DNA of 64,000 nt from Candidatus Eiseniibacteriota bacterium (GCA_046598045.1 JBKJJJ010000127.1:9419-73418); one strand, 5' to 3'. Positions 15,110-31,639 are shown, counted from the stretch's first letter. Translations and numbers: made by a program. The notes: a model not told the origin generated them from the letters alone.

Positions 15110-15202
15110 GTGGGGTTCCTTGGTCGGAAAATGGTCGTACGCTGGGCAGAGCGCATCCTGCCGATCGGCGCTCGGGCGGTCAAGGGCCTTGCGGGTGCGG
15201 CT

Positions 15203-15853
15203 TTAACGGCCCTTCTCGAGTGCGAGGCGCACGCCGCACGCGACCAACACGAGCCCGGTCAGCCGATCGAACGCCGCCTGCACGGCGGGCCGGGCGAGCC
15301 AGCGCGCGAGCGGACGGGTGGCGGCAATCAGCGCCGCGAACCACAGGAGACCCTCGAGCGCGTGCACGCCCGCGAGCAGCAGGCTGAACCCCGTCGTGTT
15401 GACCCCCGGAGGCACGAACTGCGGGAGGAATGTCGCATAGAACACGCCGACCTTGGGATTGAGCAGGTTCGTCAGGAGGCCGCGCCCGAACCAACTCCCG
15501 CCCCCGGGCGCCGGGGGCGCCGGGGTCGCCGCGGCCGCCTCCGGGCCAGGCGCCGCCCTGCCGTGACCGGCGCGCAGCAGGAGCCGAAGGCCCAGGTAGA
15601 GGAGGTAGGCCGCGCCCGCGACACGCAGCGCCGTGTAGGCTGCGCGCGAGGCGGCAAACAGCGCGCCGATCCCCACGGCGGCGACGACGCCCCACACGAG
15701 GCAACCGAGGACGATGCCGAACCCGGCCTGCCAGGCGCGGCGGGGCCCTTCGACCGTGGCGGTGCGGAGCACGAGCGCGGTGTCGAGCCCGGGAGTGATC
15801 GTGAGCAGCCCGGCGGCAAGGGCGAAGGCGGCAAGGGCGGCAGGGGGCGTCAT
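15203..15853 (-). CDS. LysE/RhtB-family amino-acid efflux translocator
   Basis: 216 aa, six predicted TM segments. ITPGLDTALVL and FLPQFV motifs are typical of the LysE family. Confidence 0.8.
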   Translation of the reverse strand: MTPPAALAAFALAAGLLTITPGLDTALVLRTATVEGPRRAWQAGFGIVLGCLVWGVVAAVGIGALFAASRAAYTALRVAGAAYLLYLGLRLLLRAGHGRAAPGPEAAAATPAPPAPGGGSWFGRGLLTNLLNPKVGVFYATFLPQFVPPGVNTTGFSLLLAGVHALEGLLWFAALIAATRPLARWLARPAVQAAFDRLTGLVLVACGVRLALEKGR

Positions 15854-15972
15854 GGCCCCGGGAGGTTACCCGCACGAGAGCCCCGAAGCCAAGCTGTTGT
15901 GCTACAATTTTGGGCCGGATTCGCGCACCGGTTCCCCACTCTTGGAACCGTGCCCGACCGCGGGAGCGACGA

Positions 15973-18900
15973 GTGACCCCAGCCCGCAAGCGACATTCGC
16001 CGACGACTTCGTCGACTTCGACCGTCCTGCGATCGAAACTGGTGCGCCCGAACGAGGGGCCGCGCCTGCTGGATCGCAGCCGGTTGGTCGACGGGCTCGC
16101 CGCGCATGCCGATCGACCGCTCTCGCTCGTCGTGGCCGACGCCGGCTACGGCAAGACCACCGTGCTGGTCGCGGCAAGTCGGCGACTTCGGCGCCCCGTC
16201 CTGTGGTACTCCCTGCTCGCCTCCGACGCCGATCCCGTGGTGTTCGGTCGCCACCTCCTCGCGGTGTTCCGCGCCGACGACCCGCGCTTCGGACGGGATT
16301 TCGAACGCGCGCTCGAGGAGCTCAAGCCGGGCCCACGCGCCGGCGAGTTGCTCGGCGGCGTCCTTGCGAACGCGGTCGCGGCGCTCAAGGGGCCCGCGCG
16401 CCTGCTGGTACTCGACGACTTCCACGAGGTTTCGCAGGCGCCGGGCGTGCTGGCGATCGTCGAGACCCTGCTCCGGCAACCCTCGGATCGGCTGCAACTC
16501 TGGATCGCGAGCCGGACGCCGCCGCCGCTCGCGATCGATCGCCTCCGCGTGCGGGGCGACGTCTTCGAAATCGACTCCAACCAGCTGGCATTCACGCGGG
16601 AGGAAATCGCGCGACTGTTCGGCGACGTGTTCGCCCGGCCCACCGGCGAAGAGGAGGCGGCCGCGCTGGAATCGGCGACGCGGGGCTGGCCGACCGCACT
16701 CCACCTGGTGCATGCGGCGCTCGAGCGGTCCCCCGGCGCGTCCGTGACCGAGGCCCTGCGGGCGGTCTCGGAATCTCCTCTCGACCTGCACTCGTACTTT
16801 TCCTCCGAGGTGTACGCGCGGCTCGATGAGGACTCCCGGCGCGTGATCGGGCGCACCTCCGCGCTCGACCACTTCGACACCGGGCTCGCCGAGGTGCTCG
16901 CCGGCGTCGCCGGCACGCGCCCGATCCTCGCCGGGCTCACCCGACGCGGGCTGCTGCGAAGTTTCGGCTCCGGGGCCGCAACGACGTTCGCCTGCCCGGA
17001 CCTGGTGCGCACATTCGTCCGGGGCACGATCGAGGAGGCGGGCGGCCCGGAGTCGTTGCGCCGCCTCGAAGCCGACACCGCGCTGGCCTTGCGCGCCCGA
17101 GGCGAAACCGAGCGCGCCTTGCGGCACGCGCTGCGTTCCGGCGATGCGGACGTCGCCTGCGCGCTCACCGGTGAGATCGCGTCGGCGCTGCTGCGCGAAG
17201 GCCGTGCGGCAGCCCTGCTCGAGTACCTGGCCGCCCTGCCCGTAGCCCGGGTCGACGCCGACGCGACCCTGAGGCGCTTTCGCGCCGACGCGCACCAGGC
17301 GGTAGGCCAATGGAACGAAGCGGCGGTCGATTACGAGGCCGCGCTCGCCGCCGCCCGCGCGCTGCCGGACCGCGAGGCGGAGGCGCGCGCGCTGCTCGGG
17401 CTCGGCAAGGTGTGGAACCTGCGGGGGCACCACGAGCAGGTGCTCGGTCTCGCCGAACGCGCGCTCGCCGGCGCGCGCGACCTCCCGCTCGACGTCCGTG
17501 CCCGGTTCCTGCAGACCAAGGCGGCAGCGCACTTCTACCTCGGGCAGTTCTCCGCCTCGGTGGCCCTTCTCGACCAGGTGCGCGCATTGCTCGGCTCCTC
17601 CCCGGACCCCGACTTGATCGTGCCGACCGTGCACAACCTGGCCATCGCCTACGCGGCCCAGGGGCGCTATCGCGAGGCCTCCGTCGAGTTCCGGGCTGCG
17701 CTCGCCCAGGTGCGCGGCGCGGCGTCGCCGCGGGCTCCGCTGTATCTTTCCAATCTCGCAACGCTCCTGCTTGAGATCGGCGAATGGAGCGAAGCCCGCG
17801 CCGCCGCCGAGGAGGGCCTGGCCGCCGCCCAGCGTTTCTCCAACCGCATGCACGAGACCATGTGTCACGAGGCGCTGGCCGAGGTGCTGGCGCACACCGG
17901 GGACCTCGACGGGGCGCTCGCGTCCCTGCGCCGCGCCGAGGAGCTCAATGCCGATTTGCGCATGGACGTCCTCGCAGCCGACCTCCTGGCCCTGCGCGGC
18001 CGGATCTTCTGCGCGCGCGGACAGTATCGCCGCGCGGTCGAATTCATGACGCGCGCGCTCGATCACCTGGCGGAGCGCCCGGACGCGCCCCGCCGGACCT
18101 CGTTCGTGACCCAGCTGGCCTGGTGCGAGCTACGGGCCGGTCGGCCCACCGTGGCCCGCGATCGGCTCCGCGCGGAGGTCTCTGCGGTGGACCAGGGCGA
18201 GAACGAGGACCAGCGGATGCGGGTCCACTACTGGCTCGCGGAGTCGCAGCTCGCACTCGGCGAGGCCCCGGACGAAGCCGCCCGCCACCTCGCGATCGCA
18301 CTCGCGTGCGTGCGGGTTCGCGGGTACGAGCACTTCCTGCGCGTCCAGGCCCGCGAGGAGCCGGCGCCGATGCTGCACGCGCTCGAACTCGGCATCGAGG
18401 TCGACGCCTGTGCGGGCGCGCTGGTCGAGGCCGGGGCGACCGTCGAGGCGCCGCTGCTCACGCTCCTCGGCGCGGCCCCGATCGCGGTCGGGGAAGCGGT
18501 GCTGACCGTGCTCGCCGAGATCGGGGGCGACGCCGCACTCGAGGAACTGCCCGCAATCGCGCGCGCGCGGCGTGCGCTCGCGCCGGCGGCGCGCACGGCG
18601 CTGCGGCACATCGAGGAGCGGGTCCGCCGCGGCCGTGCGCCCGGCGCGGGAGGCAGGGCGCGCCCCGGCGTTGCGTCGGTCGACGGCCCCGGCGCGGCAC
18701 GGCTGGTCCTGTTCGGGCCGCCGCGGCTCGAGATCGACGGCCGGCCGGTGCCCGCCTCCGCGTGGCGCACGCAGCGGGCGTTCCACGTCATGCTCGCCCT
18801 CGCGCTCCAGCCCCGGGGGATGTCCCGCGAACTGCTCATCGAATCATTTTGGCCGGGACGTCAGGCGGCGGCCGGACGTCGGAACTTCCACCCTACGCTG

Positions 18901-19536
18901 TCGTACCTCCGGGCCCTGCTACCGCGCACCGGAGAACCCCCGCTCGCGCGCGATGGCGAGACCTATCGCCTCAATCCGGATTACGCCTGGTCGTGCGATC
19001 TGTGGGAATTCGATGCCGCCTACAGCGAGGCCAGGCGCGGCGCAGGCGGCGGCGCGAGCGAGGCGGCGTCCGAGCGGGTGGTGGCGCTCGCCGACCGGCC
19101 GCTGCTCGAAGGCATCTACGGATCGTGGGCCGAGGAGTCCCAGGCGCGCGCACGGGACCGTGTCGAACAGGCATGGCGCACGCTCGGCGGGTTGCGCGTC
19201 GTGCGCGGCGACCACGAGGCCGCGCTCGCCGCGTTCCGACGCGCGTCGGAACTCGACGAGTTTCGCGAGTCGACGCGGGTCGCGCTCGTCGAGTGCCTCG
19301 TACGACTCGGGAATCGCCGGGCAGCGATCGTCGAGGCCGAACGGCTGCGCGAGATCCTCGCGCGCGAGCTGGGGGTCGATCCCCTGCCCGAGACCGAGGA
19401 GGCGCTGGCCCGCGCGCTCGAGGGTACGAGCTTGATCCGCAATGGGAAGAAACTTCGCCAGAGCCCAGCAGGACAATCGCTTACGAAGTCTGATCAAGTC
19501 AGGCTCAAGCCTACCATGGAAGGATCTCGACGATGA
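15973..19536 (+). CDS. STAND-type signal-transduction regulator: N-terminal P-loop NTPase (NB-ARC/AAA), central TPR array, C-terminal OmpR-type winged helix plus BTAD (SARP DNA-binding module at the C-terminus)
   Basis: Walker A is LVVADAGYGKTTVLVAAS. There are multiple TPR-like helical repeats (about residues 400-800). The C-terminus LVLFGPPRLEIDGRPVP...QRAFHVMLALALQPRGMSRELLIESFWPG...YRLNPDYAWSCDLWEFD matches SARP/AfsR-type wHTH, then the BTAD (LREILARELGVDPLPETEEALARAL). The start is placed at the in-frame GTG at 15973, which is preceded by GGGAG. The ORF-track start at 15910 is an alternative. The stop overlaps the next gene start (ATGA). Confidence 0.75.
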   Translation: MTPARKRHSPTTSSTSTVLRSKLVRPNEGPRLLDRSRLVDGLAAHADRPLSLVVADAGYGKTTVLVAASRRLRRPVLWYSLLASDADPVVFGRHLLAVFRADDPRFGRDFERALEELKPGPRAGELLGGVLANAVAALKGPARLLVLDDFHEVSQAPGVLAIVETLLRQPSDRLQLWIASRTPPPLAIDRLRVRGDVFEIDSNQLAFTREEIARLFGDVFARPTGEEEAAALESATRGWPTALHLVHAALERSPGASVTEALRAVSESPLDLHSYFSSEVYARLDEDSRRVIGRTSALDHFDTGLAEVLAGVAGTRPILAGLTRRGLLRSFGSGAATTFACPDLVRTFVRGTIEEAGGPESLRRLEADTALALRARGETERALRHALRSGDADVACALTGEIASALLREGRAAALLEYLAALPVARVDADATLRRFRADAHQAVGQWNEAAVDYEAALAAARALPDREAEARALLGLGKVWNLRGHHEQVLGLAERALAGARDLPLDVRARFLQTKAAAHFYLGQFSASVALLDQVRALLGSSPDPDLIVPTVHNLAIAYAAQGRYREASVEFRAALAQVRGAASPRAPLYLSNLATLLLEIGEWSEARAAAEEGLAAAQRFSNRMHETMCHEALAEVLAHTGDLDGALASLRRAEELNADLRMDVLAADLLALRGRIFCARGQYRRAVEFMTRALDHLAERPDAPRRTSFVTQLAWCELRAGRPTVARDRLRAEVSAVDQGENEDQRMRVHYWLAESQLALGEAPDEAARHLAIALACVRVRGYEHFLRVQAREEPAPMLHALELGIEVDACAGALVEAGATVEAPLLTLLGAAPIAVGEAVLTVLAEIGGDAALEELPAIARARRALAPAARTALRHIEERVRRGRAPGAGGRARPGVASVDGPGAARLVLFGPPRLEIDGRPVPASAWRTQRAFHVMLALALQPRGMSRELLIESFWPGRQAAAGRRNFHPTLSYLRALLPRTGEPPLARDGETYRLNPDYAWSCDLWEFDAAYSEARRGAGGGASEAASERVVALADRPLLEGIYGSWAEESQARARDRVEQAWRTLGGLRVVRGDHEAALAAFRRASELDEFRESTRVALVECLVRLGNRRAAIVEAERLREILARELGVDPLPETEEALARALEGTSLIRNGKKLRQSPAGQSLTKSDQVRLKPTMEGSRR

Positions 19537-22187
19537 CTCTCCGGGCCCCGACTCCGCGCCTCTCTCACCTCACGCATCCCTGCTCTGCCGGGCGGCGCGG
19601 GCGGGGCCTCGGGCTGTTCCTCGCTACGACCGCGCTCGCTCTCGCATGCGCATTCCCCCCGGCGCATGCAGGGCCTTACGTCTGGGACCAGGACGGAGAC
19701 GGCGTCGACGATCGCATGGAGACCGTGCAGGTCCTCGGCTATCGCTTCGCCTTCGAGAACGCCGACTCGCTGGGACGGCAGCGCTTCGAGGTGTCACGGG
19801 ACGCCGGCGGATTCCTGTTCGGCGTGTACGTCGTGTACGACCACCAGCCGACCCCGGCCGATCTCGCCGCGCTCAGCGCGCTCGGCATGCCGGTGATGCA
19901 TCGCCTCGAGGCGGTGCCTGCCGTGCGCAGCACCGCCACGCTCGGCCAGGCGACGCTCGCGCGCAACCTGGCTGGCGTCGAACGCATCGAGGTCATCCCG
20001 GTTCTCTATCCCGACCTCCACAACGCCACCGCCGCGCTCGGTGTGCGTGACCCCTCGGAGGTCGTGTTCCCGACCTGGGAGACGGCCGGTCTCGCGGGCG
20101 CCGGTGTCGAGGGGCCCCCGGTCGGGGGGGTTCCCACGCGGCGCGGCCAGGGCATCGTGGTCGCGATCCTCGACACCGGGATCAACGACGCCCCGGATAA
20201 CGGGTATCCCGGGCACGAAGCGGTCGCCGGGCGCGTCCTCGGCGGGGCCGACTTCACGCACGGCGACTCGCTGCTCGACACCCCGCGATCGGGAAGCGTG
20301 AACCCCGCGGATCATGGCGGCCCGGCGACGGGCGCGCACGCAACCCACGTCGCGGGGATCGTGGCGGGCACCGGCGGCGGCAGCGGCTACGCCGTGGGCC
20401 TCGCGCCCCTGGCCCGACTGGTCGACGTCAGGGTGCTCGGGGATCTCGGCAAGGGTAGCGCCGTCGCCGAGGCGATCGACTGGTGCATCGCCAATCGCGC
20501 GCGCGACTGGGGCGATCCCGATCCCTCCAACCGCGGGATCGACGTGATCAACCTGTCGCTCTCGAGCGTGGACCTGAGCGATGGAAACGACGTGGCCTCG
20601 CGCGCCGCGGCGCGCGCGGTGCAGAGCGGAATCGTGGTGGTCGCCTCGATGGGCAACGACGCGCTGAGAGCCCACGTGCCCTCGCCGGCCGCGGGCGACG
20701 GAGTGATCGCCGTGGGCGCGTGGGACATCCAGCGCAGCGGGGCTCCGGGGGATGATCGTCCGGCGACGTTCAACAACACCGGCCCGCGCGCGGACGACGG
20801 CGATGGCGACCCCAGCGACGAGCAGAAGCCGACCCTGCTCGCCCCCGGAGTCGGCATACTGGCGCCCGACGGGGACCCGACCAGCGACGGCGCCCAGTAC
20901 CGCCGCGCGAGCGGCACGAGCGCGGCGGCGGCCATGGTCAGCGGCGTGGTCGCGCTCGAGGCCTCGGCCCACCCGGGGATGTCTCCGGGGGCGATCACCC
21001 GTCTGCTCACGACCACGGCCCGCCGGGAACTCCCAGGGCTGGCCCCCGGGACCTCCGGCGTCGACCCGCGCTGGGACTCGGCGCGCGGCTTCGGGTTGGC
21101 GGACGCCTATGCCGCCGAGCTCGAGGCGGTCGCCCCGGGGCACACCCAGGTCCGCCGGCTCCAGCTCACGACGAGCCCGGACTCGATCGCGGCCGAGCTC
21201 TGGTCCCAGCGCGAGCGCGGTGCGCTCTACCTGGTGCTCGAGCGCGCGGCCGACGCCTCTGGCTCGCCCGGAGCTTTCGCCGCCTACGACTCGTTCCTGT
21301 GCGTGGGAGACTCATCGCTCGCCGACGTGTCGAACCGGTTCGTCTACGCCCGGGGCTGGCCCATCGCGTCGGCGGAGCGCGGGCGGGCGTACTGGTACCG
21401 CGCGGCCTACACCGAGGACGGGATGCGTTTCGCGGGGCCGGCAAGGCGTCTCGCCACGCCGATCGGAACCAGCCGGGCCACGCTCGAGGCGATCATCGTC
21501 CACAACGCGTACGACCATGACCTCAACGCGGTGTTCGAAGGCGTGAGCGGCTATGCCGGCTCTCCCGGCATCCTGACGTGGCCGCTCCCGGGGAGTTCCG
21601 CAGCGATCGCGAGCGACTGGGTTTCGGGGGTTTCGGCGACGGGCAACGTCTCCCAGACCTTCCGCGTGGAGATCCCTGTCGGCGCCGCCGAGAACTACCT
21701 CCCGCCGTCGGATTCGTCGCCCTGGACGCTGCGCGTGGGCGAGGGTGGCTACTTGAATCGATCCGGCCGCATCGAGCGCTTTCGGCTGACCTGGCACGGC
21801 CCCGACGGTGACGTCGTGTACGAGGGCTCCCCCTCTCCGGCGCCGACGATCGAGGGCCAGACCACGCGCGTCAGGATCCCGGCCGCGGTGACGGGCGTGC
21901 CCGATTTGGACACCCGGCAGCCGACCGGGCTCGCCGTCTTCCCGAACCCCGCGCGGACGAGCACGGCTCTCGAATTCTCGGTGCGCGCGGGCGACGCCAC
22001 CCGGGTGGACATCTTCGATCTCGCCGGCCGCCACGTCGGCGCGACGCCGCTCGCACCCAGCGGTTCAGGCCTTGTCGGCGCGCGTTGGATCGCCCGCGAC
22101 GTCCGCGGGGCAGCGCTTGCCCCGGGGGTCTACTTCGCTCGCGCAGGCCGTTCTCCGGCGCGCCGCCTGGTCCTGCTCGCGCCTTAG
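19533..22187 (+). CDS. Secreted subtilisin-like serine protease (peptidase S8) with T9SS C-terminal sorting domain (protease 1 of 3)
   Basis: Signal peptide is followed by a catalytic triad context VVAILDTGIND (Asp), HGGPATGAHATHVAGIVAG (His) and GTSAAAAMVSGVVAL (Ser). The C-terminus LAVFPNPARTSTALEFSV...GVYFARAG is a T9SS CTD. Confidence 0.85.
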   Translation: MTLRAPTPRLSHLTHPCSAGRRGRGLGLFLATTALALACAFPPAHAGPYVWDQDGDGVDDRMETVQVLGYRFAFENADSLGRQRFEVSRDAGGFLFGVYVVYDHQPTPADLAALSALGMPVMHRLEAVPAVRSTATLGQATLARNLAGVERIEVIPVLYPDLHNATAALGVRDPSEVVFPTWETAGLAGAGVEGPPVGGVPTRRGQGIVVAILDTGINDAPDNGYPGHEAVAGRVLGGADFTHGDSLLDTPRSGSVNPADHGGPATGAHATHVAGIVAGTGGGSGYAVGLAPLARLVDVRVLGDLGKGSAVAEAIDWCIANRARDWGDPDPSNRGIDVINLSLSSVDLSDGNDVASRAAARAVQSGIVVVASMGNDALRAHVPSPAAGDGVIAVGAWDIQRSGAPGDDRPATFNNTGPRADDGDGDPSDEQKPTLLAPGVGILAPDGDPTSDGAQYRRASGTSAAAAMVSGVVALEASAHPGMSPGAITRLLTTTARRELPGLAPGTSGVDPRWDSARGFGLADAYAAELEAVAPGHTQVRRLQLTTSPDSIAAELWSQRERGALYLVLERAADASGSPGAFAAYDSFLCVGDSSLADVSNRFVYARGWPIASAERGRAYWYRAAYTEDGMRFAGPARRLATPIGTSRATLEAIIVHNAYDHDLNAVFEGVSGYAGSPGILTWPLPGSSAAIASDWVSGVSATGNVSQTFRVEIPVGAAENYLPPSDSSPWTLRVGEGGYLNRSGRIERFRLTWHGPDGDVVYEGSPSPAPTIEGQTTRVRIPAAVTGVPDLDTRQPTGLAVFPNPARTSTALEFSVRAGDATRVDIFDLAGRHVGATPLAPSGSGLVGARWIARDVRGAALAPGVYFARAGRSPARRLVLLAP

Positions 22188-22399
22188 CCCCGGCTTCAAA
22201 ACCCGGCTCGCACCACCAGCTCCCCGGCTCGCTCCTCCAGCTCACTGGCCCGCCCGCTCAAGTCATTCTCAAGTCCCTCCCCCTAGTCTCGCCGCAGTTG
22301 GGAGCGCCGGCAATGAGCCGGTCTTGACCGGGTGGCAGGCGGGACTCGGGTCCCGCCGCCACCGGTACGCGAGCGACGCCACGGCGTCGAGGGGGAACA

Positions 22400-25300
22400 T
22401 TGATCATGGTGCGACACGCCTTACTCCGGGCCCTGGGCTTGTCCGCGCTGCTGGGGACGCTCGTTGCGTCGCCATCGGCCGCGGCGTGGATGTGGGATCA
22501 GAACGCGAATCGGATCGATGACCGCATGGAGGCCGTCGAGACCGACGGACCCCTGGCAGCGCGCGTGGACGGCGCCATAGACGGACGCCTGCGCATCGCC
22601 CTGCTGAACGCCGCTGCGCCCTACGTCTACGGTGTCTACGTCGGGTACGACCACCATCCGGGCGACGGCGACGCCGCCGCGCTCGCCGCCACCGGCGCGC
22701 CGGTGCAGGTGCGCTACGAGAACATCGACTACATCCGCACCCAGGTGACACTCGCCCAGGCGCAGGCGATCGCCCAGCTCCAGGGCGTCACGCGCGTCGA
22801 GACCATTCCCATGCTCTATCCCGTGAACGACATCGCGACCCAGGTGCTCCGCGCGCGGCCGTCGGGCGGGCAGCTGTTCCCCAGCGTGTGGGGCGATCTC
22901 GGAGTGACCGGCCGCGGCGTCTCGGTCGCGATCCTCGATACCGGCGTCAACGACGCTCCGGACTCGACGAACGGATACCCGGGCCACGAATCGCTGCGCG
23001 GCAAGTTCGTCGGGGGCGGAAGCTTCTTCTCCGGCCAGCCGGCCCTCAACACGCCGCTGAACAGCAGCGAAAACCCGAAGCATGCGCAGGACCCCGAGCT
23101 CACCTTCCACGGCACGCACGTCGCGGGCACGGCCATCGGCTCCGGCGGGCCGAACGGCGTGCTGGGCGGCGCGGCCCCGGGCCTGTACGCGGGCCTGGCC
23201 CCGGACGCGCGCCTGATCGACTGCAAGGTCCTCTCCGACGCCGGGCTGGGGTTCGGCGCAGCGGATGCACTCGACTGGCTGATTCACCACAAGAACGACA
23301 GCTGGGGCCTCTCGGGCGCCGACTCCATCTATCGCGGGGTGGACGTCGCGAACATGTCGCTCGGCGGCACCGACAACTCCGACGGCACCGACGCCAGCAG
23401 CGCCGCCGTCAACGCGGCCTCGCGCGCCGGGATCGTGGTCTGCGTCGCCACCGGCAACGACGGCAAGACGAACTATATCGCCTCGCCCTGCGCCGCGGAC
23501 CTGGCGCTCAGCGTGGGCGCTTTCACCGACAACAACACGATCGGACGCGAGGACGACCTCGTCGCGAGCTACAGCAACGAGGGCCCCCGCCTCGACGACC
23601 GCGACGCCGACCACGTGGACGAGATGAAGCCCTCGGTCCTGGGCTCGGGCACGGGCGTCCTGTCGGCGCTCGGTGATCCCACGACCAATGGACGCCAGTA
23701 CCACCACATCAACGGCACGAGCATGGCCACCCCGACGATCGCGGGCGTGTGCGCGCTCATCCTCTCCGCGCGGCCGAACCTGTCGCCCGACGACGTGCGG
23801 CGGATCATCCAGGACACCGCCGAACACCGGACCGACCGCGGCAAGCAGGCAGCGGGCGCGTCCAATCCCTACGGGATCGACCCGAACTACCATCCCTCGT
23901 GGGGCTGGGGCATGCCCGACGCCTACGCCGCCGTGCGCGAGGCGACGAACCCGAGCACGACCCAGATCGTGCGCATGACCCTCACGCCCCAGCGTGGCCC
24001 GGACGCGGTCCGCGTCGCCTGGTCGACCCAGCGCGAGGTCGATCTCTCGCGCTTCGTGGTCGAGCGCGCGCCGGACGTCGTCGGCGGCCCGGGCGCGTTC
24101 CAGTCGATCTACACGCAGACGGTCGCGAATCCGCAGTGGCAGATCCGCGGGATCGCGAATCGCCACCCCTACGCCTACGTCGACGGGGATCCGACGCTGG
24201 ACCCGGGCGCGAAGTACTGGTATCGGCTGCGCTGGATCGACACCAGCGGGTTCACCTACCAGGAACCCGCGCTGTCGGTGCGCATCGCCGACAGCCCGGT
24301 CGTGGCGCGCTTGCTCTACTCGTGGACCCACAACTACTCGGACGGCGACCTCGCCATTCGCGTCGGCACCGGGACCTCGACGCTGTATCCGATCTGGTTT
24401 CGCGCCGGCCTGGGGGCCCCCGCGGCGGACTCGATGAAGACGCGTTCGGGCGTAGCCTTCACCGGGACCAAGCAGTACTACTTCCACGTCGATCTCACGA
24501 CGGCCGACCTGGTCGAAGGGTTCCTGCCGCCGAGCGCGGCGAACCCCTGGTTCCTGGGCGTCAAGGAGGGCGGCTTCGTCAACACGAAGGGCACCGTGAA
24601 CGACTTCTCGATCCAGGTCTTCGGGCCGAGCGGGACGACCACGTATGCCGCTCCGAATCCGGCGACCCAGACGGTCGAGAAGACCGAGACCGTGTTCTGG
24701 ATCCCGGCCGACCCGGCCGCGTCGACGAACCACGCTCCGGTCTTCCAGGCGGTCGGACCGCAGACCATCGGCGAAGGCCTGATGCGCCGCTTCACGGTGC
24801 AGGCGTCGGATGCCGACGGCGACCTCCTCACCTACAGCGCGCTCTCGCTCCCTCCCGGCGCGCTGTTCGACACCGGCACTCACCGCTTCGAGTGGACGCC
24901 CGGGTATGCGGCGGCCGGCTCGTACACGGTGAGGTTCGTCGCCACGGACAACCACGTCCCGGCCGCGGCGGCCGACACCGAGGTGGTCGCGATCACGGTC
25001 ACCGACCGCAGCCCGAGCAGCAACCTGCCCCCGGCGTTCGACGTGATCTCCGATCGCTCCGCGATCGTCGGGGAGCCGGTGAGCTTCCGCGTCACGGCGC
25101 GCGATCCCGAGGGCTCGGCTCTGACCTACAGCTTGGTGGACCCGGGGTCGCTCGGGCAGCTCGATCCGGCGACCGGGGCGTTCAGCGTCACGATGTCGAA
25201 CAGCGGCTACTTCCGCTTCGGCTTCGTCGCCACCGATCCGGGCGGACTCACCGACTCGATGACGGTCGTGGTCTCGGCGATCGACCCGGTGATCGGCCCC

Positions 25301-25954
25301 GCCCCGCTGTCGGCCTGCGAGGAGAACGCGCAGGTGTTCACGGGCGTGGTCGGCATGGGCGTCCCCGAAGTCGCCCCGGGCCAGGTGGAACTGCCGTTCA
25401 CCTCGCCGGCGGGGATCCAGCGCATCCAGGCCACGCTGTCGTGGTTCGGCAGCCCGGCCGTGGATCTCGATCTCTACCTGCTCGACGCGAGCCACAACGT
25501 CGTGAAGGCGGCCGCCTCGAGCAACCCCAGCGAGAACCTCGTCTACAGCACGCCGGTGGCGGGCAACTACTTCTGGCGCGTCGTCAGCTACGCGAGCCCG
25601 GACACCGCGAACTTCCAGATCGCCATGAGCCAGTGCGTCACCTCACCGCTGGTCGGCGTGGCCGGAGGCGGGGCGGCCCGGGTCTCGTTCGCGCGCACCG
25701 TGCCGAACCCGTTTACGCTCTCGACGCGGGTGTCATTCTCGATGCCGGCGGCGGGCCATGCGACGCTCAAGCTCTATGACGTTGCCGGTCGCCTGGTGCG
25801 CACGCTCGAGGACTCCGACCTGCCGGCGGGAACGCACTCGCGGGTGTGGGACCGCCGAACCGACCGTGGCACGACCGCGACCGCGGGCCTGTACTTCTAC
25901 CAGCTCGAAGTGGGCGGAAAGCGCTTCGGGCAGAAGGTGATCCTCGCGCGCTGA
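22400..25954 (+). CDS. Secreted subtilisin-like serine protease (S8) with FN3-like, tandem Ig/cadherin-like, PPC (pre-peptidase C-terminal) domains and T9SS CTD (protease 2 of 3)
   Basis: VSVAILDTGVNDAPD, HGTHVAGTAIG and GTSMATPTIAGVCALI form the triad. The domain after the catalytic core has AWSTQREVDLSRFVVER...YWYRLRWID (FN3-like). Two He_PIG/cadherin-like repeats follow (LTYSALSLPPGALFD..., LTYSLVDPGSLGQLD...). The PPC domain is LDLYLLDASHNVVKAAASSNPSENLVYSTPVAGNYFWRVVSY. The CTD is VPNPFTLSTRVSFSM...GLYFYQLEVGGKRFGQKVIL. Confidence 0.85.
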   Translation: MIMVRHALLRALGLSALLGTLVASPSAAAWMWDQNANRIDDRMEAVETDGPLAARVDGAIDGRLRIALLNAAAPYVYGVYVGYDHHPGDGDAAALAATGAPVQVRYENIDYIRTQVTLAQAQAIAQLQGVTRVETIPMLYPVNDIATQVLRARPSGGQLFPSVWGDLGVTGRGVSVAILDTGVNDAPDSTNGYPGHESLRGKFVGGGSFFSGQPALNTPLNSSENPKHAQDPELTFHGTHVAGTAIGSGGPNGVLGGAAPGLYAGLAPDARLIDCKVLSDAGLGFGAADALDWLIHHKNDSWGLSGADSIYRGVDVANMSLGGTDNSDGTDASSAAVNAASRAGIVVCVATGNDGKTNYIASPCAADLALSVGAFTDNNTIGREDDLVASYSNEGPRLDDRDADHVDEMKPSVLGSGTGVLSALGDPTTNGRQYHHINGTSMATPTIAGVCALILSARPNLSPDDVRRIIQDTAEHRTDRGKQAAGASNPYGIDPNYHPSWGWGMPDAYAAVREATNPSTTQIVRMTLTPQRGPDAVRVAWSTQREVDLSRFVVERAPDVVGGPGAFQSIYTQTVANPQWQIRGIANRHPYAYVDGDPTLDPGAKYWYRLRWIDTSGFTYQEPALSVRIADSPVVARLLYSWTHNYSDGDLAIRVGTGTSTLYPIWFRAGLGAPAADSMKTRSGVAFTGTKQYYFHVDLTTADLVEGFLPPSAANPWFLGVKEGGFVNTKGTVNDFSIQVFGPSGTTTYAAPNPATQTVEKTETVFWIPADPAASTNHAPVFQAVGPQTIGEGLMRRFTVQASDADGDLLTYSALSLPPGALFDTGTHRFEWTPGYAAAGSYTVRFVATDNHVPAAAADTEVVAITVTDRSPSSNLPPAFDVISDRSAIVGEPVSFRVTARDPEGSALTYSLVDPGSLGQLDPATGAFSVTMSNSGYFRFGFVATDPGGLTDSMTVVVSAIDPVIGPAPLSACEENAQVFTGVVGMGVPEVAPGQVELPFTSPAGIQRIQATLSWFGSPAVDLDLYLLDASHNVVKAAASSNPSENLVYSTPVAGNYFWRVVSYASPDTANFQIAMSQCVTSPLVGVAGGGAARVSFARTVPNPFTLSTRVSFSMPAAGHATLKLYDVAGRLVRTLEDSDLPAGTHSRVWDRRTDRGTTATAGLYFYQLEVGGKRFGQKVILAR

Positions 25955-26038
25955 GCGCGAGCGGATGGGGGCGATCGGTCTTCGTGCGGACCCCGTTGGG
26001 CCCGGAATCCACGGGATCGGCGGAGATCGGTCGTTGAG

Positions 26039-26076
26039 GCGGGCCGGGGAGCAATCCCCGGCCCGCGTCGTTGTTG
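26039..26076 (+). terminator. Putative intrinsic terminator after protease 2 (approximate coordinates)
   Basis: An 11-bp GC stem gcgggccgggg / ccccggcccgc with a 6-nt loop is followed by gtcgttgttg. A TTGACA hexamer follows immediately, which may be a -35 element for protease 3. Confidence 0.4.
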
Positions 26077-26201
26077 ACACGGAGGCCGGATCCGGGGGAA
26101 ACTCATTCGATTTTGTCGCCATTCCCTCTTTTGCGGAATCGTGTCCGGGTCCCCCCTCGGCCTCGCCGTCCGTGCCCCCCTGATCAGGAGATCCTGGACG
26201 C

Positions 26202-29200
26202 ATGCGTGTTCGCCCGAGCCTCGCGCCGAGTCGTCTTGCATTGCTGGCCGCACTCACCCTCGCTCTGCTCCCGACCTTCGCCCTGGCCCAGGTTCGCATG
26301 CCGCTCGAGGATCTGGAGCGCGGCCTGAGGGCTGCCGAAGGCGGGCAGGAGATTCCGATCGCGAACCGTCCGTTCGCACGCCAGGTCTCGGTCAATGACC
26401 GGCTGTTCGATCGTGCGCCCTCGGGCGCGGAGCCGCCGGCCTACCAGGCGCCCGAGGAGTTCGGCGTCGTGCTCGAGTACGACGGTGGCCGGGTCGCGCT
26501 CGAGGCCGCCGGCGTGCGCGTCCAGAGCGAGGTCGGCAACATCTTCACGGCGCGCATGAAGCGCGACGAGATCGCGCTCCTGCGCAACGTGCGCGGCCTG
26601 AAGTCGGCGCGCCTCGCGCACTACACGCGGCCGAACCTCAACGTGAGCGCGGTCGACGTGCGCTCGGACCTCGAGCACGCGGCGGTGGGCTCGCCCCCCG
26701 TGTACAACGGGCGCGCGGGCCTCAACATGATCCTCGGCGACGTGGACACGGGGATCGACTTCACGCGCCCGGACTTCATGGACGGGCTGGGCAAGACGCG
26801 CATCCTCTATATCTGGGACCAGACCGACGCAGTCGGGCCCGGACCGGGCGCGTTCGGCTATGGCTCGGAGTGGACGAAGACCCAGATCGACAACACGCCT
26901 GGCGCGGTCCGCCAGACCGACAGCGACGGCCACGGCACGGCCGTCGCCGGAGTCCTGATCGGCAACGGCTCGCTCACCGGCTGCTCCGCCCCGGCGTACC
27001 GCTACGTGGGCATGGCGCCGCTCGCGCAGATCATCGAGGTCAAGACGAACTTCTCGGACGCGGGCATCATCGATGGCGTGAACTACATCTTCCAGAAGGC
27101 CGCGGCGCTCGGGAAGGACGCGGTCGTGAACCTCTCGCTCGGCAGCCAGTTCGGGCCGCACGACGGCTCGGACACGTTCGCCTCGGCGATCAGCGCGCTG
27201 ACCGGCCCGGGCAAGATCGTGGTCGCCTCGGCCGGCAACGAGCAGGCGGACAAGCTCCACGGCAAGCTCACCACGACCTCGACCACGCCGGGCGTCGATC
27301 GCGTCACGATCACGGTGCCGGCCTACACGGCGAACGCGGGCACGTTCAACGACTACTTCCTGGTCACCGGCTGGTACGACCCCACGGCGAGCTACACGAT
27401 TCGCGTCAAGGCCCCGAACGGGACGGACTCGCTGTCGTGCGGCTTCGGCGCCAACAAGGACAAGAACACCGTCAGCGGCAAGATCTTCATCGCGAACCAG
27501 AGCACGCTCTACGGCTACGGCGGCACGCCGAAGGGCCGGCAGTTCGAGGTCGAGGTCTACGACTCGCTCTCGACGCGCCGCCCGACAGCCGGCACGTGGG
27601 AGATCTCGATCGTCTCCAACGGCGCGCCGAACATCGGCAAGCGCGTCGACACGTGGATCTACCAGGCGCTGCTCGGCGCCGCGGGCGCGAGCCCGGTGAC
27701 CGCTATCAGTCTCGACAACACCACCGTGGTCGGGAGCCCGGCGGACGGCGACAGCGTGTTCGCGGTCGGCGCCCACACCACGAAGGCCTCGTGGTTCTCG
27801 TGCGCCCAAAACGGCACGTGCGCCTACTCGGTCCCGCCGACGCTCAACGCGATCGCCTCGTTCTCCTGCATCGGCCCGCGCAGGGACGGCGTGCTCAAGC
27901 CCGAGATCACGGCCCCCGGCTTCGGCGTGGCCACGACCCACTCGGCGCAGGCCCCCGCGATCGGCATCTGCGGCGACGTCGATGACGGCGTGCACGAGGT
28001 CGAGGCCGGCACGAGCTTCTCCGCCCCGCACGTCGCGGGCGCGGCCTCGCTGTTCCTCTCGGCCTACCCGGGCTCGTCGCCGAGCCGGGTCAAGCAGGCG
28101 TTCGAGGCGCACGCGCGCACGGACGGCTTCACCGGCGCGGTGCCGAACAACACCTGGGGTTACGGCAAGCTCGACATCTACGGCACGTTCGACCACACCG
28201 CTCCGGCCGTGGCGGTGACCTCGCCGAGCGGCGGCGAGTCGTGGGCGGTCGGCTCGAGCCACAACATCACCTGGACCGCGAGCGACGCCTCGGGCGTCAC
28301 CTCGGTCGACCTCGCCTACTCGACCGACGGCGGCGGCAGCTACCCGAACGCAATCGCCACCGGGATCGCGAACTCGGGCTCGTACTCGTGGTCGGTGCCC
28401 AACGCGGTCACCTCGACGGCGCGCGTGCGGGTCACGGCGCACGACCCGTTCAACAACACGGCGGCCGCCCAGAGCGCGGCGAACTTCGCGATCGTCGACG
28501 GCACGCCGCCGACGGCGAGCGTGGTCGCCCCGAACGGCGGCGAATCGTGGGGCGCGGGCTCCTCGCAGACGATCCAGTGGACCGCGAGCGACAACCTGGC
28601 GGTGACCGGGGTCGACCTCGCGTACTCGACCGACGGCGGCGCGACCTACCCGAACGTGATCGCGACCGGCCTGGCGAACAGCGGCAGCTACGCCTGGACG
28701 CTGCCGGCGATCTACACGACGACCGCGCGGGTCAAGGTCACCGCCTACGACGCATCGGCGAACGCGGGCGTGGGCACGAGCGCGAACAACTTCTCGATCG
28801 TCGACCTGACGCCGCCGACGGTGACCGTCACCTCGCCGGTGGGCGGCGGATCGGTCGAGGCGGGCTCGAACACGAACGTGGCCTACACCTACGGCGACAA
28901 CGTGGGCGTGACCTCGTTCGACATCGAGTACTCGGCGGACAACGGCGGCAGCTGGGCGACGCTCGCGACCGGCGTCGCCGGGTCGCCCTACCTGTGGGCC
29001 GTGCCCGCAACGCTCGTGCCGCAGGCGAAGCTGCGCGTCACCGCGCACGACGCCGCCGCGAACACGGGTAACTTCACGACCGGCGCGTTCTCGATCGTGG
29101 ACACGACCCCGCCCGCGATCTCGCTGATCGCCCCGAATGGCGGGGAGACCTGGACCGAGGGCGACAGCCGCCTGATCGACTGGACGGCGAGCGACGTCAT

Positions 29201-29717
29201 GGGCGTCGACTCGGTGCGCGTCGAGTACTCGCTCCATGGCACCGGCGGGCCATGGCTGGCGGTCGCGACCGTGGCACCGGACACCAGCGGCTACCAGTGG
29301 ACGGTGCCCGTGGGCGTCAGCGACTCGGCGCTGGTGCGCGTGACCGCGTTCGACACGTCGGTCAACGGCGGCCTGGATCAGAGCAACGCGCTGTTCTCGA
29401 TCCTGGGCTCGGCTGTGGGCGTGGCGCCGACGGGCGACGTGGCGTTCGCCCTCCTGCCGCCGGCCCCGAATCCGGGCAGCGGCGCGATGACGCTGCGCTA
29501 CCGCCTGCCGCAGACGGCGGACGCATCGCTCGAGATCTTCTCGCCTTCGGGCCAGCGTGTGTGGTCCGCATTCGAGGCCGCGAAGTCGGCGGGTGAGCAC
29601 GTGGTGACCTGGAGCGGTCGCGATGCGGGCGGCGCGCGCGTGCCGGCCGGGCTCTATTTCGTGCGGCTCAGGACACAGTTCGGCAACCGCAGCGCAAAGC
29701 TGGTGCGCCTGAAGTAG
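26202..29717 (+). CDS. Secreted subtilisin-like serine protease (S8) followed by four tandem Kre9/KNH-like (about 100 aa) beta-sandwich repeats and a T9SS CTD (protease 3 of 3)
   Basis: Signal peptide is MRVRPSLAPSRLALLAALTLALLPTFALAQ. Triad context is LGDVDTGIDFTRPDF, DSDGHGTAVAGVLIG and GTSFSAPHVAGAASLF. The repeats are of the form P.GGESW.(A/E)GS...I.WTASD...V..VDLAYSTDGG.S(Y/W)..IATG.ANSGSY.W..P. The CTD is LLPPAPNPGSGAMTLRYRL...GLYFVRLRTQFGNRSAKLVRLK. Confidence 0.85.
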   Translation: MRVRPSLAPSRLALLAALTLALLPTFALAQVRMPLEDLERGLRAAEGGQEIPIANRPFARQVSVNDRLFDRAPSGAEPPAYQAPEEFGVVLEYDGGRVALEAAGVRVQSEVGNIFTARMKRDEIALLRNVRGLKSARLAHYTRPNLNVSAVDVRSDLEHAAVGSPPVYNGRAGLNMILGDVDTGIDFTRPDFMDGLGKTRILYIWDQTDAVGPGPGAFGYGSEWTKTQIDNTPGAVRQTDSDGHGTAVAGVLIGNGSLTGCSAPAYRYVGMAPLAQIIEVKTNFSDAGIIDGVNYIFQKAAALGKDAVVNLSLGSQFGPHDGSDTFASAISALTGPGKIVVASAGNEQADKLHGKLTTTSTTPGVDRVTITVPAYTANAGTFNDYFLVTGWYDPTASYTIRVKAPNGTDSLSCGFGANKDKNTVSGKIFIANQSTLYGYGGTPKGRQFEVEVYDSLSTRRPTAGTWEISIVSNGAPNIGKRVDTWIYQALLGAAGASPVTAISLDNTTVVGSPADGDSVFAVGAHTTKASWFSCAQNGTCAYSVPPTLNAIASFSCIGPRRDGVLKPEITAPGFGVATTHSAQAPAIGICGDVDDGVHEVEAGTSFSAPHVAGAASLFLSAYPGSSPSRVKQAFEAHARTDGFTGAVPNNTWGYGKLDIYGTFDHTAPAVAVTSPSGGESWAVGSSHNITWTASDASGVTSVDLAYSTDGGGSYPNAIATGIANSGSYSWSVPNAVTSTARVRVTAHDPFNNTAAAQSAANFAIVDGTPPTASVVAPNGGESWGAGSSQTIQWTASDNLAVTGVDLAYSTDGGATYPNVIATGLANSGSYAWTLPAIYTTTARVKVTAYDASANAGVGTSANNFSIVDLTPPTVTVTSPVGGGSVEAGSNTNVAYTYGDNVGVTSFDIEYSADNGGSWATLATGVAGSPYLWAVPATLVPQAKLRVTAHDAAANTGNFTTGAFSIVDTTPPAISLIAPNGGETWTEGDSRLIDWTASDVMGVDSVRVEYSLHGTGGPWLAVATVAPDTSGYQWTVPVGVSDSALVRVTAFDTSVNGGLDQSNALFSILGSAVGVAPTGDVAFALLPPAPNPGSGAMTLRYRLPQTADASLEIFSPSGQRVWSAFEAAKSAGEHVVTWSGRDAGGARVPAGLYFVRLRTQFGNRSAKLVRLK
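28213..29400 (+). repeat. Four tandem in-frame repeats of roughly 300 nt (about 100 aa) inside the protease 3 gene (approximate boundaries)
   Basis: The protein-level repeats begin TSPSGGESWAVGSS..., VAPNGGESWGAGSS..., TSPVGGGSVEAGSN... and IAPNGGETWTEGDS.... Copies are divergent at the nucleotide level. Confidence 0.6.
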
Positions 29718-29740
29718 GCACCCGGCATCGGCACTCCACG

Positions 29741-29780
29741 GGGCGGTCCGCGCTCGGGCGCGGGCCGCCCCTTCTGCCAT
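29741..29780 (+). terminator. Putative GC-rich terminator hairpin after protease 3 (approximate coordinates)
   Basis: The stem ggggcgg...ccgcccc encloses an inner palindrome tccgcgctcgggcgcggg and is followed by ttctgcc. It has no strong U-tract, so this is a weak call. Confidence 0.35.
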
Positions 29781-29902
29781 GCGGCGTTCCTCGGGATCAA
29801 CCCGTGCGGCTGAGGGTGCTGGCATGCGGGCATGGCAACTCCAAGGGGCCCTGCGGCGTAGTCGGCGAGTCCCCACCGACCTTCCAGCCCGGGAGTCCGC
29901 CC

Positions 29903-31639
29903 ATGCGTGTCCCTGCCTCACGGCGATCGAACCTGCTCGTTCCGTTCACCGCCGTGTTCCTGTTGTTCGCCGTCCCCCCCGCGCGGTCGGCCACGCGCCT
30001 CGACCCGGCTGTGCAGTACGCGAGCGACGTCGATACCCTGCTCGCCCGCGTGCGCGCGGGGCGTGGCGCCGAGGCGCTCGTCCTGTTGCGCCGCGCACTC
30101 CTTGTCTCGCCCGACGACTCCTACCTCTGGCACCTGAGGGGCGACCTCGCCGCCGACCAGCACGAGCCCGCGGAGGCGGCGTTCGCGTATCGCCAGGCGC
30201 TCGCGCTCGGATCCCAGACGCGCGCGGGGGTGGCCGAGGACCTGGCGCGCGCGCTGGCCAAGGGCGGCGAGCGTGACAGCGCACTCGCCTGGCTCGAGCG
30301 CTCGGTGGCGTGGGGCAACGAGCACCGGCCGGACCTGGCCGCCGACAGCGCGTTCACCTCCCTGTGGAAGGACCCGCGCTACCGCGCGGCGACGGGGCAG
30401 CTCCCCGACCGCAAGTTCACGCGCGACGAGGGCTGGCGCTATGACCTTGCGTATCTCGTGTCCGAGGTGAAGCGAATGCACTATCGCTATCGGGTCGAGC
30501 CACTTCCGCCCGGCTTCGAAGACGCCGTTCGGGACCTCGACCGGCGTATTCCCGGACTCCCCGACGGACAGGTCCTGCTCGCCATGCAGCGGCTGCTGGT
30601 GCGGATCGGGGACGGCCACAGCACGCTCTACCCGGTGAGCGACCGCACGGGCCCGTGGCCGGTGGTGCCGGTGCGCATGTACCTGTTCAGCGACGGCGCA
30701 TGGATCGTGGACGCCGACTCGTCGCACGTCGGCGCGATCGGCCAGCGCGCGACGGCGATGAACGGCGTGGCAATCGACCGGGTCCTCGCGCGCCTGACGG
30801 AGGTGGTGCCCCACGACAATCCGATGGGCGTCCTCTGGATGGGACCCCTGTTTCTGTCCATGCCCGATGTTCTTGTCCAGCTTGGCATTGGGAACGACTC
30901 CTCAAGCATCACTTTCGACCTGGTCGATCGCGCGGGGACCGCTTCGCGCCTGACGGTGAGCACGCCGACGACTGCGCACGGCGGCAATCCGCACACGCAC
31001 ATTCCGCGGCTCGGTCCGTCCCGCGCCCCGGGCGCGGGTCCCGTGCCGCGCTGGCTCGCGCACGCGGACGACGCCTACTGGTTTGGACCGCTCGAGGATT
31101 CGTCGATCGTCTACATGCAGTTCAACCAGGTGCAGAACGACCCGCGCGAGCGCCTGCGCGACTTCGCGAACCGGCTCACGGCGTATGTCACCGAGCACGA
31201 CACGCGCGACCTGATCGTCGACGTACGGCACAACAACGGCGGGAACGGGAACCTGAACGTGTTGCTCGAGCGCGCGCTCGTGCGCTTCGAAGGCGGACGA
31301 CCGGGGCGGCGTTTGTGGGTGATCGCGGGGCGTGGCACGTTCTCGGCGGCGCAGTCGTTCATCAACGACGTCGAGCGCCTGACCAACGCGACGTTCGCCG
31401 GCGAACCCAGCGGGTCACGTCCGAACTTCGTCGGCGAATCGACGTCGTTGCGGCTGCCGTGGAGCGGAGCCATCGGGAGCGTCTCGACGCGCTTCCACAG
31501 CTTCCGCGACGCGGATGAGCGATTGTGGATCGCGCCGCGCGTGCCCATTCCGCTCTCGTCGGCGGACTACTTCGCGAACCGCGACCCGGCGCTCGACGCG
31601 GTGGTCGCGGCGGCGAAGGCGCGGCGGCCGATCCCCTAG
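29903..31639 (+). CDS. Secreted S41-family (C-terminal processing / tricorn-core-like) serine peptidase with N-terminal TPR-like domain
   Basis: The start is the ATG at 29903 (MRVPASRRSNLLVPFTAVFLLFAVPPARSA). An N-terminal TPR-like helical region is followed by S41 blocks IVDVRHNNGGNGNL (compare DLRNNGGG) and GRGTFSAAQSF (Ser nucleophile context). It is convergent with the next gene and overlaps it by 4 nt. Confidence 0.7.
   Translation: MRVPASRRSNLLVPFTAVFLLFAVPPARSATRLDPAVQYASDVDTLLARVRAGRGAEALVLLRRALLVSPDDSYLWHLRGDLAADQHEPAEAAFAYRQALALGSQTRAGVAEDLARALAKGGERDSALAWLERSVAWGNEHRPDLAADSAFTSLWKDPRYRAATGQLPDRKFTRDEGWRYDLAYLVSEVKRMHYRYRVEPLPPGFEDAVRDLDRRIPGLPDGQVLLAMQRLLVRIGDGHSTLYPVSDRTGPWPVVPVRMYLFSDGAWIVDADSSHVGAIGQRATAMNGVAIDRVLARLTEVVPHDNPMGVLWMGPLFLSMPDVLVQLGIGNDSSSITFDLVDRAGTASRLTVSTPTTAHGGNPHTHIPRLGPSRAPGAGPVPRWLAHADDAYWFGPLEDSSIVYMQFNQVQNDPRERLRDFANRLTAYVTEHDTRDLIVDVRHNNGGNGNLNVLLERALVRFEGGRPGRRLWVIAGRGTFSAAQSFINDVERLTNATFAGEPSGSRPNFVGESTSLRLPWSGAIGSVSTRFHSFRDADERLWIAPRVPIPLSSADYFANRDPALDAVVAAAKARRPIP

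Follow-up and report, generated by a model that had tools for sequence, protein, structure and literature searches.

The 64,000-nucleotide stretch of DNA analyzed here (GCA_046598045.1 JBKJJJ010000127.1:9419-73418, from a Candidatus Eiseniibacteriota bacterium; 'the window') contains five genes at positions 15973–31639, all encoded on the + strand: a STAND-type regulator with a SARP output module at its C-terminus, three S8 subtilases (S8-1, S8-2 and S8-3) and a TPR/S41-like protein (Table 1). The GC content is ~70–73% along the whole region. In the reading that we consider likely, the regulator is a ligand/ATP-gated, MalT-like switch that turns on S8-1 and S8-2 from promoters marked by SARP-type boxes. 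The domain identities of the regulator, its conserved pairing with S8-1 and a conserved direct-repeat motif of defined geometry are established below.

Profile, PDB and model comparisons identify the regulator as a MalT-type NTPase followed by a MalT-like tetratricopeptide repeat (TPR) sensor and a C-terminal SARP output composed of a winged helix and a BTAD. Both the domain order and the MalT-like topology, with a SARP output in place of LuxR, had been proposed in a first-pass annotation of the window and are upheld by these comparisons. Residues 19–661 fit the NCBIfam MalT model (E = 5e-60) with a score of 203.5 bits, below the equivalog cutoff of 537, and the nucleotide-binding oligomerization domain (NOD, residues 19–423) matches the solved MalT NOD (PDB 8bob; E = 8e-26). 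PF25873 (WHD_MalT) is on record for orthologs of the regulator. The Pfam, NCBIfam and PDB comparisons gave no NB-ARC match, the best NOD matches being to MalT, and the NCBIfam AfsR model fits the regulator only at the TPR stretch (residues 509–663). The Walker A (G58, G60 and K61) and Walker B (D148 and D149) residues are invariant among 35 orthologs. The ~120-residue segment between TPR_MalT and the winged helix (residues ~786–905, positions 18328–18693) has no Pfam match; it looks HEAT-like by eye (LHALELGIEVD...LLTLLGA...VLAEIGGDAALEEL), and several of its positions are conserved in orthologs.

The SARP module spans ~residues 908–1149 of 1187 and is therefore C-terminal, in contrast to the N-terminal module by which Streptomyces SARPs are defined. 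The BTAD is matched by Pfam at residues 1008–1143 (E = 4e-12). Because the Pfam scan for Trans_reg_C was negative, even at E ≤ 1, we turned to structure and PDB alignments for the winged helix. The best PDB sequence match to the C-terminal module is EmbR (2fez residues 14–279, E = 1e-10), and both this protein and the AfsR SARP module (8hvr, E = 1e-6) align over the winged helix and BTAD alike. An AlphaFold model of residues 880–1187 (pLDDT 88, pTM 0.80) has strong PDB matches only to the SARP modules of AfsR (8k60, 8hvr) and EmbR (2ff4, 2fez), with E-values of 1e-10 to 3e-9 and target-normalized TM scores of up to 0.81 (AfsR chains); the next match has E = 3e-3. As judged from the model and these alignments, the winged helix is present despite the Trans_reg_C miss. 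No GerE/LuxR helix-turn-helix was matched in the C-terminal 345 residues at E ≤ 1. Of the domains named in the first-pass annotation, TPR and BTAD were thus recovered by profile scans, Trans_reg_C was not, and the NOD is of the MalT type and not NB-ARC.

The recognition-helix segment RRNFHPTLSYLR is nearly invariant in the 35 orthologs, with N971, H973, P974, T975, S977 and R980 conserved in all of them. The segment is also kept in P0132, although the module of this divergent relative is only 37% identical overall. The last ~40 residues of the regulator are unconserved (consensus mostly 'x' in the same 35 orthologs), and the tail has a pLDDT of ~50–60.

A word-indexed search returned more than 100 clusters of full-length orthologs with 52–87% identity, and the named ones are metagenome-assembled genomes (MAGs) of Candidatus Eisenbacteria. 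Because these clusters come from independent assemblies and keep the architecture, the regulator is not a fusion artifact, and the concern that a frameshift had joined two genes can be set aside. The MAGs of the closest relatives also place the host in Candidatus Eisenbacteria, an uncultured, widespread soil phylum of the FCB group, in agreement with the non-actinobacterial, high-GC origin suggested earlier.

The architecture is neither unique nor rare and is common in metagenomic data. A HMMER search with the C-terminal module against 1.84 billion cluster representatives gave 2530 matches at E ≤ 1e-10. Among the best 150 of these 2530 are ~40 proteins of at least 850 residues that carry the module at the C-terminus, versus 5 that carry it at the N-terminus. 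All nine that we scanned have the order AAA_22/AAA_16, TPR_MalT/TPR_12, (Trans_reg_C) and C-terminal BTAD. In the databases these proteins carry nonspecific or incorrect names ('BTAD domain-containing putative transcriptional regulator', 'tetratricopeptide repeat protein', 'LuxR family ... MalT'), while some orthologs bear the JGI automatic name 'MalT/DNA-binding SARP family transcriptional activator'. SARPs have been studied almost solely as N-terminal modules of actinobacterial antibiotic regulators. Recent AfsR papers define the SARP module as N-terminal (including PMC10936776), and the SARP papers that we consulted do not mention a C-terminal or non-actinobacterial form. Literature searches for C-terminal SARP or BTAD proteins, non-actinobacterial SARP or SARP-STAND proteins and Eisenbacteria proteases returned nothing relevant.

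The regulator is linked functionally to the proteases, as the first-pass annotation had anticipated. A metagenome scan fetched 91 loci, which form our comparative set (a scan of species-representative genomes gave 5 loci only); 51 of them are testable, containing the 3′ end of the regulator and no less than 1200 bp of sequence after it. An S8-1 ortholog lies 3′ of the regulator in 48 of the 51 and starts ~50–170 bp past the end of the BTAD. Six orthologs with 57–76% identity have an S8 peptidase directly downstream while their other flanking genes vary, and the order regulator, S8, He_PIG-S8 recurs beside P0132. A 27%-identical relative of the regulator also has an S8 gene after it. S8-2 is often the next gene after S8-1 in the compared loci.

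The spacer between the BTAD and S8-1 contains the motif TCAAGyC-N4-TCAAGnn-N8-nAnnnT-N7-ATG in all 51 dereplicated loci. The TCAAG-N6-TCAAG core is exact in 40 of the 51 spacers and has no more than 2 mismatches in the remainder, and in most loci the S8-1 start codon, counted from the second repeat, falls at +27 to +29 (~28 nt). Core positions are conserved in 46–51 of the 51 loci, against a composition close to background in the N4 and N8 spacers, which indicates position-specific constraint and not mere shared ancestry. Within the hexamer, position 2 is A in 46 and position 6 is T in 50 of the 51 loci, with mild enrichment of G at positions 3–4. The stop codon of the regulator, recomputed for each locus since tblastn alignments can run through stop codons, varies in position between 133 nt upstream and 40 nt downstream of the first repeat. 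Fifteen loci have the stop upstream of the box, which is then wholly intergenic; the box is therefore conserved as DNA.

A repeats-only matrix run on the loci found 32 further unique boxes, most of which do not precede S8-1 and are separated from the first downstream open reading frame (ORF) by tens to hundreds of nucleotides. Since 30 of these 32 boxes retain A at +27 and T at +31 despite their distance from ORFs, we assign the hexamer as a −10 element and not as a ribosome-binding site. The repeats could in principle be maintained for a non-transcriptional reason, such as coding constraint on the regulator tail or an RNA element, with the hexamer serving as the S8-1 ribosome-binding site. 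The 35 of 51 loci in which the regulator frame enters or crosses the box would agree with this explanation, as would the G enrichment in the hexamers of S8-1 promoters. We find it barely credible, however: 15 loci, as noted above, have an intergenic box; box and hexamer also occur together far from start codons, on the opposite strand and in other intergenic regions; what is invariant in the hexamer is A2 and T6 and not a G-rich core; and direct repeats form no RNA helices.

The geometry of the box is that of a SARP operator. SARP operators are built from direct repeats with 11- or 22-bp periodicity in which 8 bp lie between the 3′ repeat and the −10 element; the afs box spans −40 to −19 (PMC10936776). 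Measured from a transcription start at the S8-1 ATG, the candidate box would span about −39 to −18, matching the position of the afs box. The predicted operator fits the SARP rule at the 51 S8-1 promoters and at the 32 other boxes, and conservation of the box goes together with a nearly invariant recognition helix. Response regulators of the OmpR/PhoB type likewise bind 7-bp direct repeats, which have an 11-bp periodicity and take the place of the −35 element. A regulator of that type encoded elsewhere might therefore use the TCAAG repeats as its operator, leaving the STAND-SARP protein to control other genes, and the regulator gene in the window indeed has no box upstream of it. This alternative seems very improbable to us, as the box is tied to the regulator gene in all 51 dereplicated spacers and tracks the regulator across lineages, the 8-bp distance to the −10 hexamer is the SARP rule, the recognition helix is conserved along with the box, and boxes precede the regulator gene itself in several loci, as autoregulation would predict.

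In the window, the TCAAG-repeat pattern has two exact matches in 64 kb, counting both strands, and each is directly upstream of an S8 paralog. With a 32-position matrix these are the best sites at 31.7 bits (19494) and 25.5 bits (22258); the next site reaches 8.6 bits, and 20 shuffled windows gave at most 8.9. No box of 7 bits or more was found upstream of the regulator (15854–15972), S8-3 (25955–26201) or the S41-like gene (29718–29902). SARP repeats had earlier been suggested upstream of 15973, 22400 and 26202; of these, only the ones upstream of 22400 were found, and the box before 19533 had not been proposed.

Box 1 falls within the final 40 nt of the regulator frame, in its unconserved tail, and the tail in the window is read-through over the box. 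The ATG at 19533 is only 7 nt past the hexamer, so that the predicted S8-1 transcript would have a leader of 0–2 nt and be effectively leaderless. An equivalent of box 2 precedes S8-2 in every other examined locus that has this gene; it is degenerate in L001 and is also present in L092. The S8-2 leader is predicted to be structured (−57.6 kcal/mol for 22296–22410, z = −2.4), and its stable stem-loop, similar in sequence in L010 only, could be an attenuator or a stabilizing structure.

The first-pass annotation had instead treated the regulator and S8-1 as co-transcribed and translationally coupled through the ATGA at 19533–19536, within a single signal-gated unit that also takes in S8-2, S8-3 and the S41-like gene. 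The overlap is real and recurs in 19 of the 51 loci, including distant ones; all five genes are co-oriented; no terminator was found between the regulator and S8-1; and in one divergent locus (L092) 12 bp separate the regulator and S8 genes, and a box is found not in this interval but upstream of the regulator. The overlap is nevertheless missing from 32 of the 51 loci, whereas the box is present in all 51, so the logic that is conserved is not translational coupling. In this clade the ATGA may contribute a basal level of coupled expression.

The larger unit is further contradicted by the features between S8-2 and S8-3, where the terminator-like hairpin reported earlier was confirmed as a strong one (stem at 26039–26066, 12 bp with 11 G–C pairs, then a T-rich tail). 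S8-3 probably forms a transcription unit of its own. Neither it nor the S41-like gene has a box, S8-3 occurs only in the closest relatives (L001 and L012), an opposite-strand gene parts it from S8-2 in L001, and the S41 identity is weak. We regard coupled, single-unit expression as unlikely; S8-3 and the S41-like gene count as neighbors and not as predicted targets, and the region is not a four-protease operon.

For the SARP-box promoters of S8-1 and S8-2, we infer that the regulator binds the motif and activates transcription from the predicted start sites upon ligand-dependent oligomerization. By analogy with MalT and AfsR, a ligand on the TPR region together with ATP would release autoinhibition and drive oligomerization, which would set two SARP modules side by side on the two 11-bp-spaced TCAAGyC direct repeats. 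The SARP dimer would then replace −35 recognition ('sigma adaptation') and recruit RNA polymerase. This role is proposed because the −10 element is weak (nAnnnT), lies 8 bp from the 3′ repeat and has no recognizable −35 element with it. Transcription from promoter 1 would start at or within 1–2 nt of the S8-1 ATG and give an essentially leaderless mRNA, and promoter 2 would yield an S8-2 mRNA with a structured leader of ~110 nt. The products would be paralogous secreted subtilases with type IX secretion system (T9SS)-type sorting tails.

Several points weigh against this mechanism. The Trans_reg_C profile does not recognize the winged helix, and repeats with 11-bp spacing are also used by PhoB-type proteins, so a different regulator could use the box. 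On a read-through transcript in the window, the −10 candidate AAGGAT could act as a Shine–Dalgarno sequence, and the ATGA overlap permits coupling as a parallel route. The S8-1 promoters have additional conserved upstream positions that a SARP-box model does not explain. Finally, the loci are phylogenetically related, and the counts given above are not independent events.

These additional positions (C-20 in 40, A-19 in 45, T-13 in 35 and T-12 in 46 of 49 S8-1-type promoters, plus T-27 and G-26) are absent from the 32 other boxes. Their counterpart in the window is at 19467–19482 (−27 to −12) and includes CAAT at 19474–19477 and TT at 19481–19482. A third repeat 21 bp upstream could account for them, as could an UP-like element or an RNA element with which the regulator gene ends.

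The regulator resembles AfsR and other large Streptomyces SARPs in combining a SARP output with a STAND NTPase and a TPR sensor; the SARP modules superpose, and the candidate operators follow the SARP-box rule at about the promoter position of the afs box. AfsR-type proteins differ in having an N-terminal SARP module, an NB-ARC NOD and C-terminal TPRs, whereas the regulator described here has a C-terminal SARP module and a MalT-type NOD. They are also actinobacterial and control antibiotic pathways, as opposed to an FCB-group phylum in which secreted proteases are the predicted targets and the repeat is TCAAGyC. Escherichia coli MalT and the LAL proteins share a homologous NOD and TPR region and likewise place the DNA-binding output at the C-terminus. 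Their output is a LuxR/GerE helix-turn-helix, in place of which the regulator has a winged helix and BTAD (203 bits against the 537-bit MalT equivalog cutoff), and MalT boxes contrast with the predicted SARP-type direct repeats over the −35 region.

The SARP-LAL proteins PimR, SanG and PolR also join a SARP module to a LAL/MalT-like ATPase, but these are pathway regulators of actinobacteria and carry the SARP module at the N-terminus. The PimR heptamer is CGGCAAG with 4-bp spacers, and PimR reportedly also uses a 10-bp unit at a secondary operator (PMC5930380). A TCGAG-like form of the classical SARP heptamers could not be confirmed in the papers searched for it and plays no part in the analysis. 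The PimR operator shares a CAAG core and an 11-bp unit with the box described here, and its 10-bp unit resembles the offset of the half-repeat at 19484. EmbR of Mycobacterium tuberculosis has a homologous SARP module, which in that protein is N-terminal and followed by FHA, with no NTPase.

For one clade of C-terminal SARPs, the analysis provides a predicted operator, promoter geometry and regulon (S8-1 and S8-2), taking SARP promoter logic outside the Actinobacteria and turning a domain annotation into a testable system in which the DNA probe and protein fragment are defined and the start sites predicted. It likewise offers an initial look at the way in which extracellular proteolysis may be controlled in an uncultured, widespread soil phylum. 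If its ligand becomes known, the regulator could be reused together with the box as a portable ligand-gated expression module. A bolder proposal, which we put forward tentatively and consider rather doubtful, is that SARP-type sigma adaptation extends past the Actinobacteria as a phylum-wide Eisenbacteria family with a C-terminal SARP on a MalT scaffold, which would run a regulon of secreted proteases through canonical SARP-box promoters, and that binding at box 1 both launches the leaderless mRNA and blocks read-through of the regulator, creating a feedback switch. If so, the C-terminal-SARP STAND proteins of other phyla would constitute a large, unstudied class of ligand-gated activators.

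Boxes are found upstream of the regulator gene in L031, L036, L039, L042, L054 and L092, and because of this position they suggest positive autoregulation in these loci. Locus L092, from the divergent P0132 lineage, has its box ~390 nt upstream of the regulator (5607–5644), no box in the interval between the regulator and S8 (9486–9498) and a canonical box before the He_PIG-S8 gene (12100–12137); this arrangement suggests a true regulator-S8 operon in L092.

Other secreted proteins also lie behind boxes, at L031 (−) 2127, L041 (−) 1128 and L035 (+) 8580, at L029 (−) 2519 and L075 (+) 3689, and at L043 (−) 2054. They include two families, related to each other, that combine a pre-peptidase-like domain at the N-terminus with a weak match to BNR_2 (a sialidase-like propeller), and an FG-GAP-like repeat protein with a C-terminus like T9SS-type tails, both of the latter features being assigned by eye. 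The regulon is probably wider than proteases in other Eisenbacteria, as judged from these boxes, which suggest a broader range of secreted hydrolases. The 'ORFs' after extra boxes in L004, L016, L017, L074 and L078 look like high-GC artifacts and were set aside. The regulator-S8 pair of L007 (27% identity) has an ordinary TTGACC-17-TAGTTA promoter and lacks a TCAAG box; this locus is not a clean negative control because its recognition helix is related yet not identical.

The three S8 proteases named in the first-pass annotation are confirmed by Pfam Peptidase_S8 matches (E = 4e-40 for S8-1, 1.7e-44 for S8-2 and 2.2e-33 for S8-3) and by DTG, H(G/A)THVAG-type and GTS motifs of the Asp-His-Ser triad in all three translations. 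S8-1 and S8-2 are paralogs with 38% identity over 825 residues. Of the accessory domains listed earlier, the Pfam scan of the three proteases recovers He_PIG and PPC for S8-2 and the four Big_7/Kre9_KNH repeats for S8-3, but no FN3. All three had been described as T9SS cargo. S8-2 and S8-3 score 31.5 and 32.2 bits with the T9SS type A sorting domain (TIGR04183, cutoff 23), whereas S8-1 falls below the cutoff at 18.1 bits but has a tail with homology to both other tails (E = 9e-8 and 2e-7). No T9SS component was found among the large ORFs scanned in the window, which covers only 64 kb of the genome.

The assignment of the fifth gene as an S41 peptidase is weak and remains tentative. The Pfam match exceeds the cutoff (27.3 versus 24 bits) but is partial, covering positions 2–48 of the 165-position profile; no NCBIfam S41 model matched the protein, and its PDB matches, to IRBP-like S41-fold proteins, are marginal.

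Table 1. Positions of features in and around the protease region of the window
Feature	Position	Strand	Remarks
Regulator upstream region, common with divergent LysE gene	15854..15972	+	No SARP box (no matrix match ≥ 7 bits)
Candidate extended −10, TGcTACAAT	15900-15908	+	In regulator upstream region; promoter assigned by eye
Shine–Dalgarno-like GGAG before regulator GTG	15963-15966	+	
STAND-SARP regulator, 1187 aa, GTG start	15973..19536	+	Profile, PDB and ortholog comparisons
MalT-type NOD, residues 19–423	16027..17241	+	PDB 8bob, E = 8e-26
MalT-like TPR (SUPR) sensor, residues 485–785	17425..18327	+	Pfam TPR_MalT E = 1.3e-14, TPR_12 E = 1.5e-21
C-terminal SARP module: OmpR-type winged helix (~residues 908–1007) and BTAD (1008–1143)	18694..19419	+	
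C-terminal tail of regulator, predicted disordered, unconserved	19420..19533	+	DNA holds predicted S8-1 promoter
Half-repeat cGAAGTC	19484-19490	+	10 bp (not 11) before first repeat; shared only with L010, closest relative
SARP box 1 (predicted), TCAAGTC-aggc-TCAAGCC	19494..19511 (repeats 19494-19500, 19505-19511)	+	Exact match, 31.7 bits
Predicted −10, AAGGAT	19520..19525	+	8 bp past 3′ repeat, 7 nt before S8-1 ATG
S8-1 subtilase, 884 aa: signal peptide, S8 domain, shared post-catalytic domain, T9SS-type tail	19533..22187	+	Conserved partner of regulator
SARP box 2 (predicted), TCAAGTC-attc-TCAAGTC	22258..22275 (repeats 22258-22264, 22269-22275)	+	Exact match, 25.5 bits
Predicted −10, TAGTCT	22284..22289	+	8 bp past box 2
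Stem-loop in predicted S8-2 leader (~110 nt)	22327..22366	+	
S8-2 subtilase: He_PIG, PPC, T9SS tail	ORF from 22400, probable ATG 22406, end 25954	+	Paralog of S8-1
Intrinsic-terminator-like hairpin and T-rich tail	26039..26076	+	3′ of S8-2
S8-3 subtilase: four Big_7/Kre9_KNH repeats, T9SS tail	26202..29717	+	No SARP box
Secreted TPR/S41-like protein	ORF from 29804, probable ATG 29903 ahead of signal peptide, end 31639	+	No SARP box

Domain scans of the window show that the genes around the regulator encode proteases and exporters, not biosynthetic enzymes. The upstream neighbor is a divergent LysE-type exporter on the − strand (15853–15203; Pfam E = 1e-29), and the downstream neighbor is a convergent ThrE-type Thr/Ser exporter, also on the − strand (31636–32862; E = 3e-61). 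The two exporters thus flank the protease island and may be linked to amino-acid overflow in proteolytic growth. This arrangement is not kept in L001 and L002, where electron transfer flavoprotein (ETF) genes abut the regulator. Two − strand ORFs of 327 and 254 aa in the window (13362–15109) match the ETF alpha and beta genes beside the L001 and L002 regulators in length and position, and synteny suggests that they are ETF genes.

Long spurious ORFs are plentiful on both strands of this 70% GC sequence. A + strand ORF at 14627–15976 has a GTGA overlap with the regulator start and mimics a coupled upstream gene; it was rejected as spurious because it has no Pfam match and the LysE gene lies on the opposite strand. 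The − strand mirror ORF of 36519–46745 is likewise spurious and has no domain matches. Further upstream, the − strand (9244–12422) encodes a LacI-family regulator (11157–12422) and a CBM9-containing protein (9244–11757). The + strand ORF at 36519–46745 encodes a very large cell-surface protein of 3408 aa, with 11 DUF11 repeats (E = 7e-139) and a C-terminal OmpA domain.

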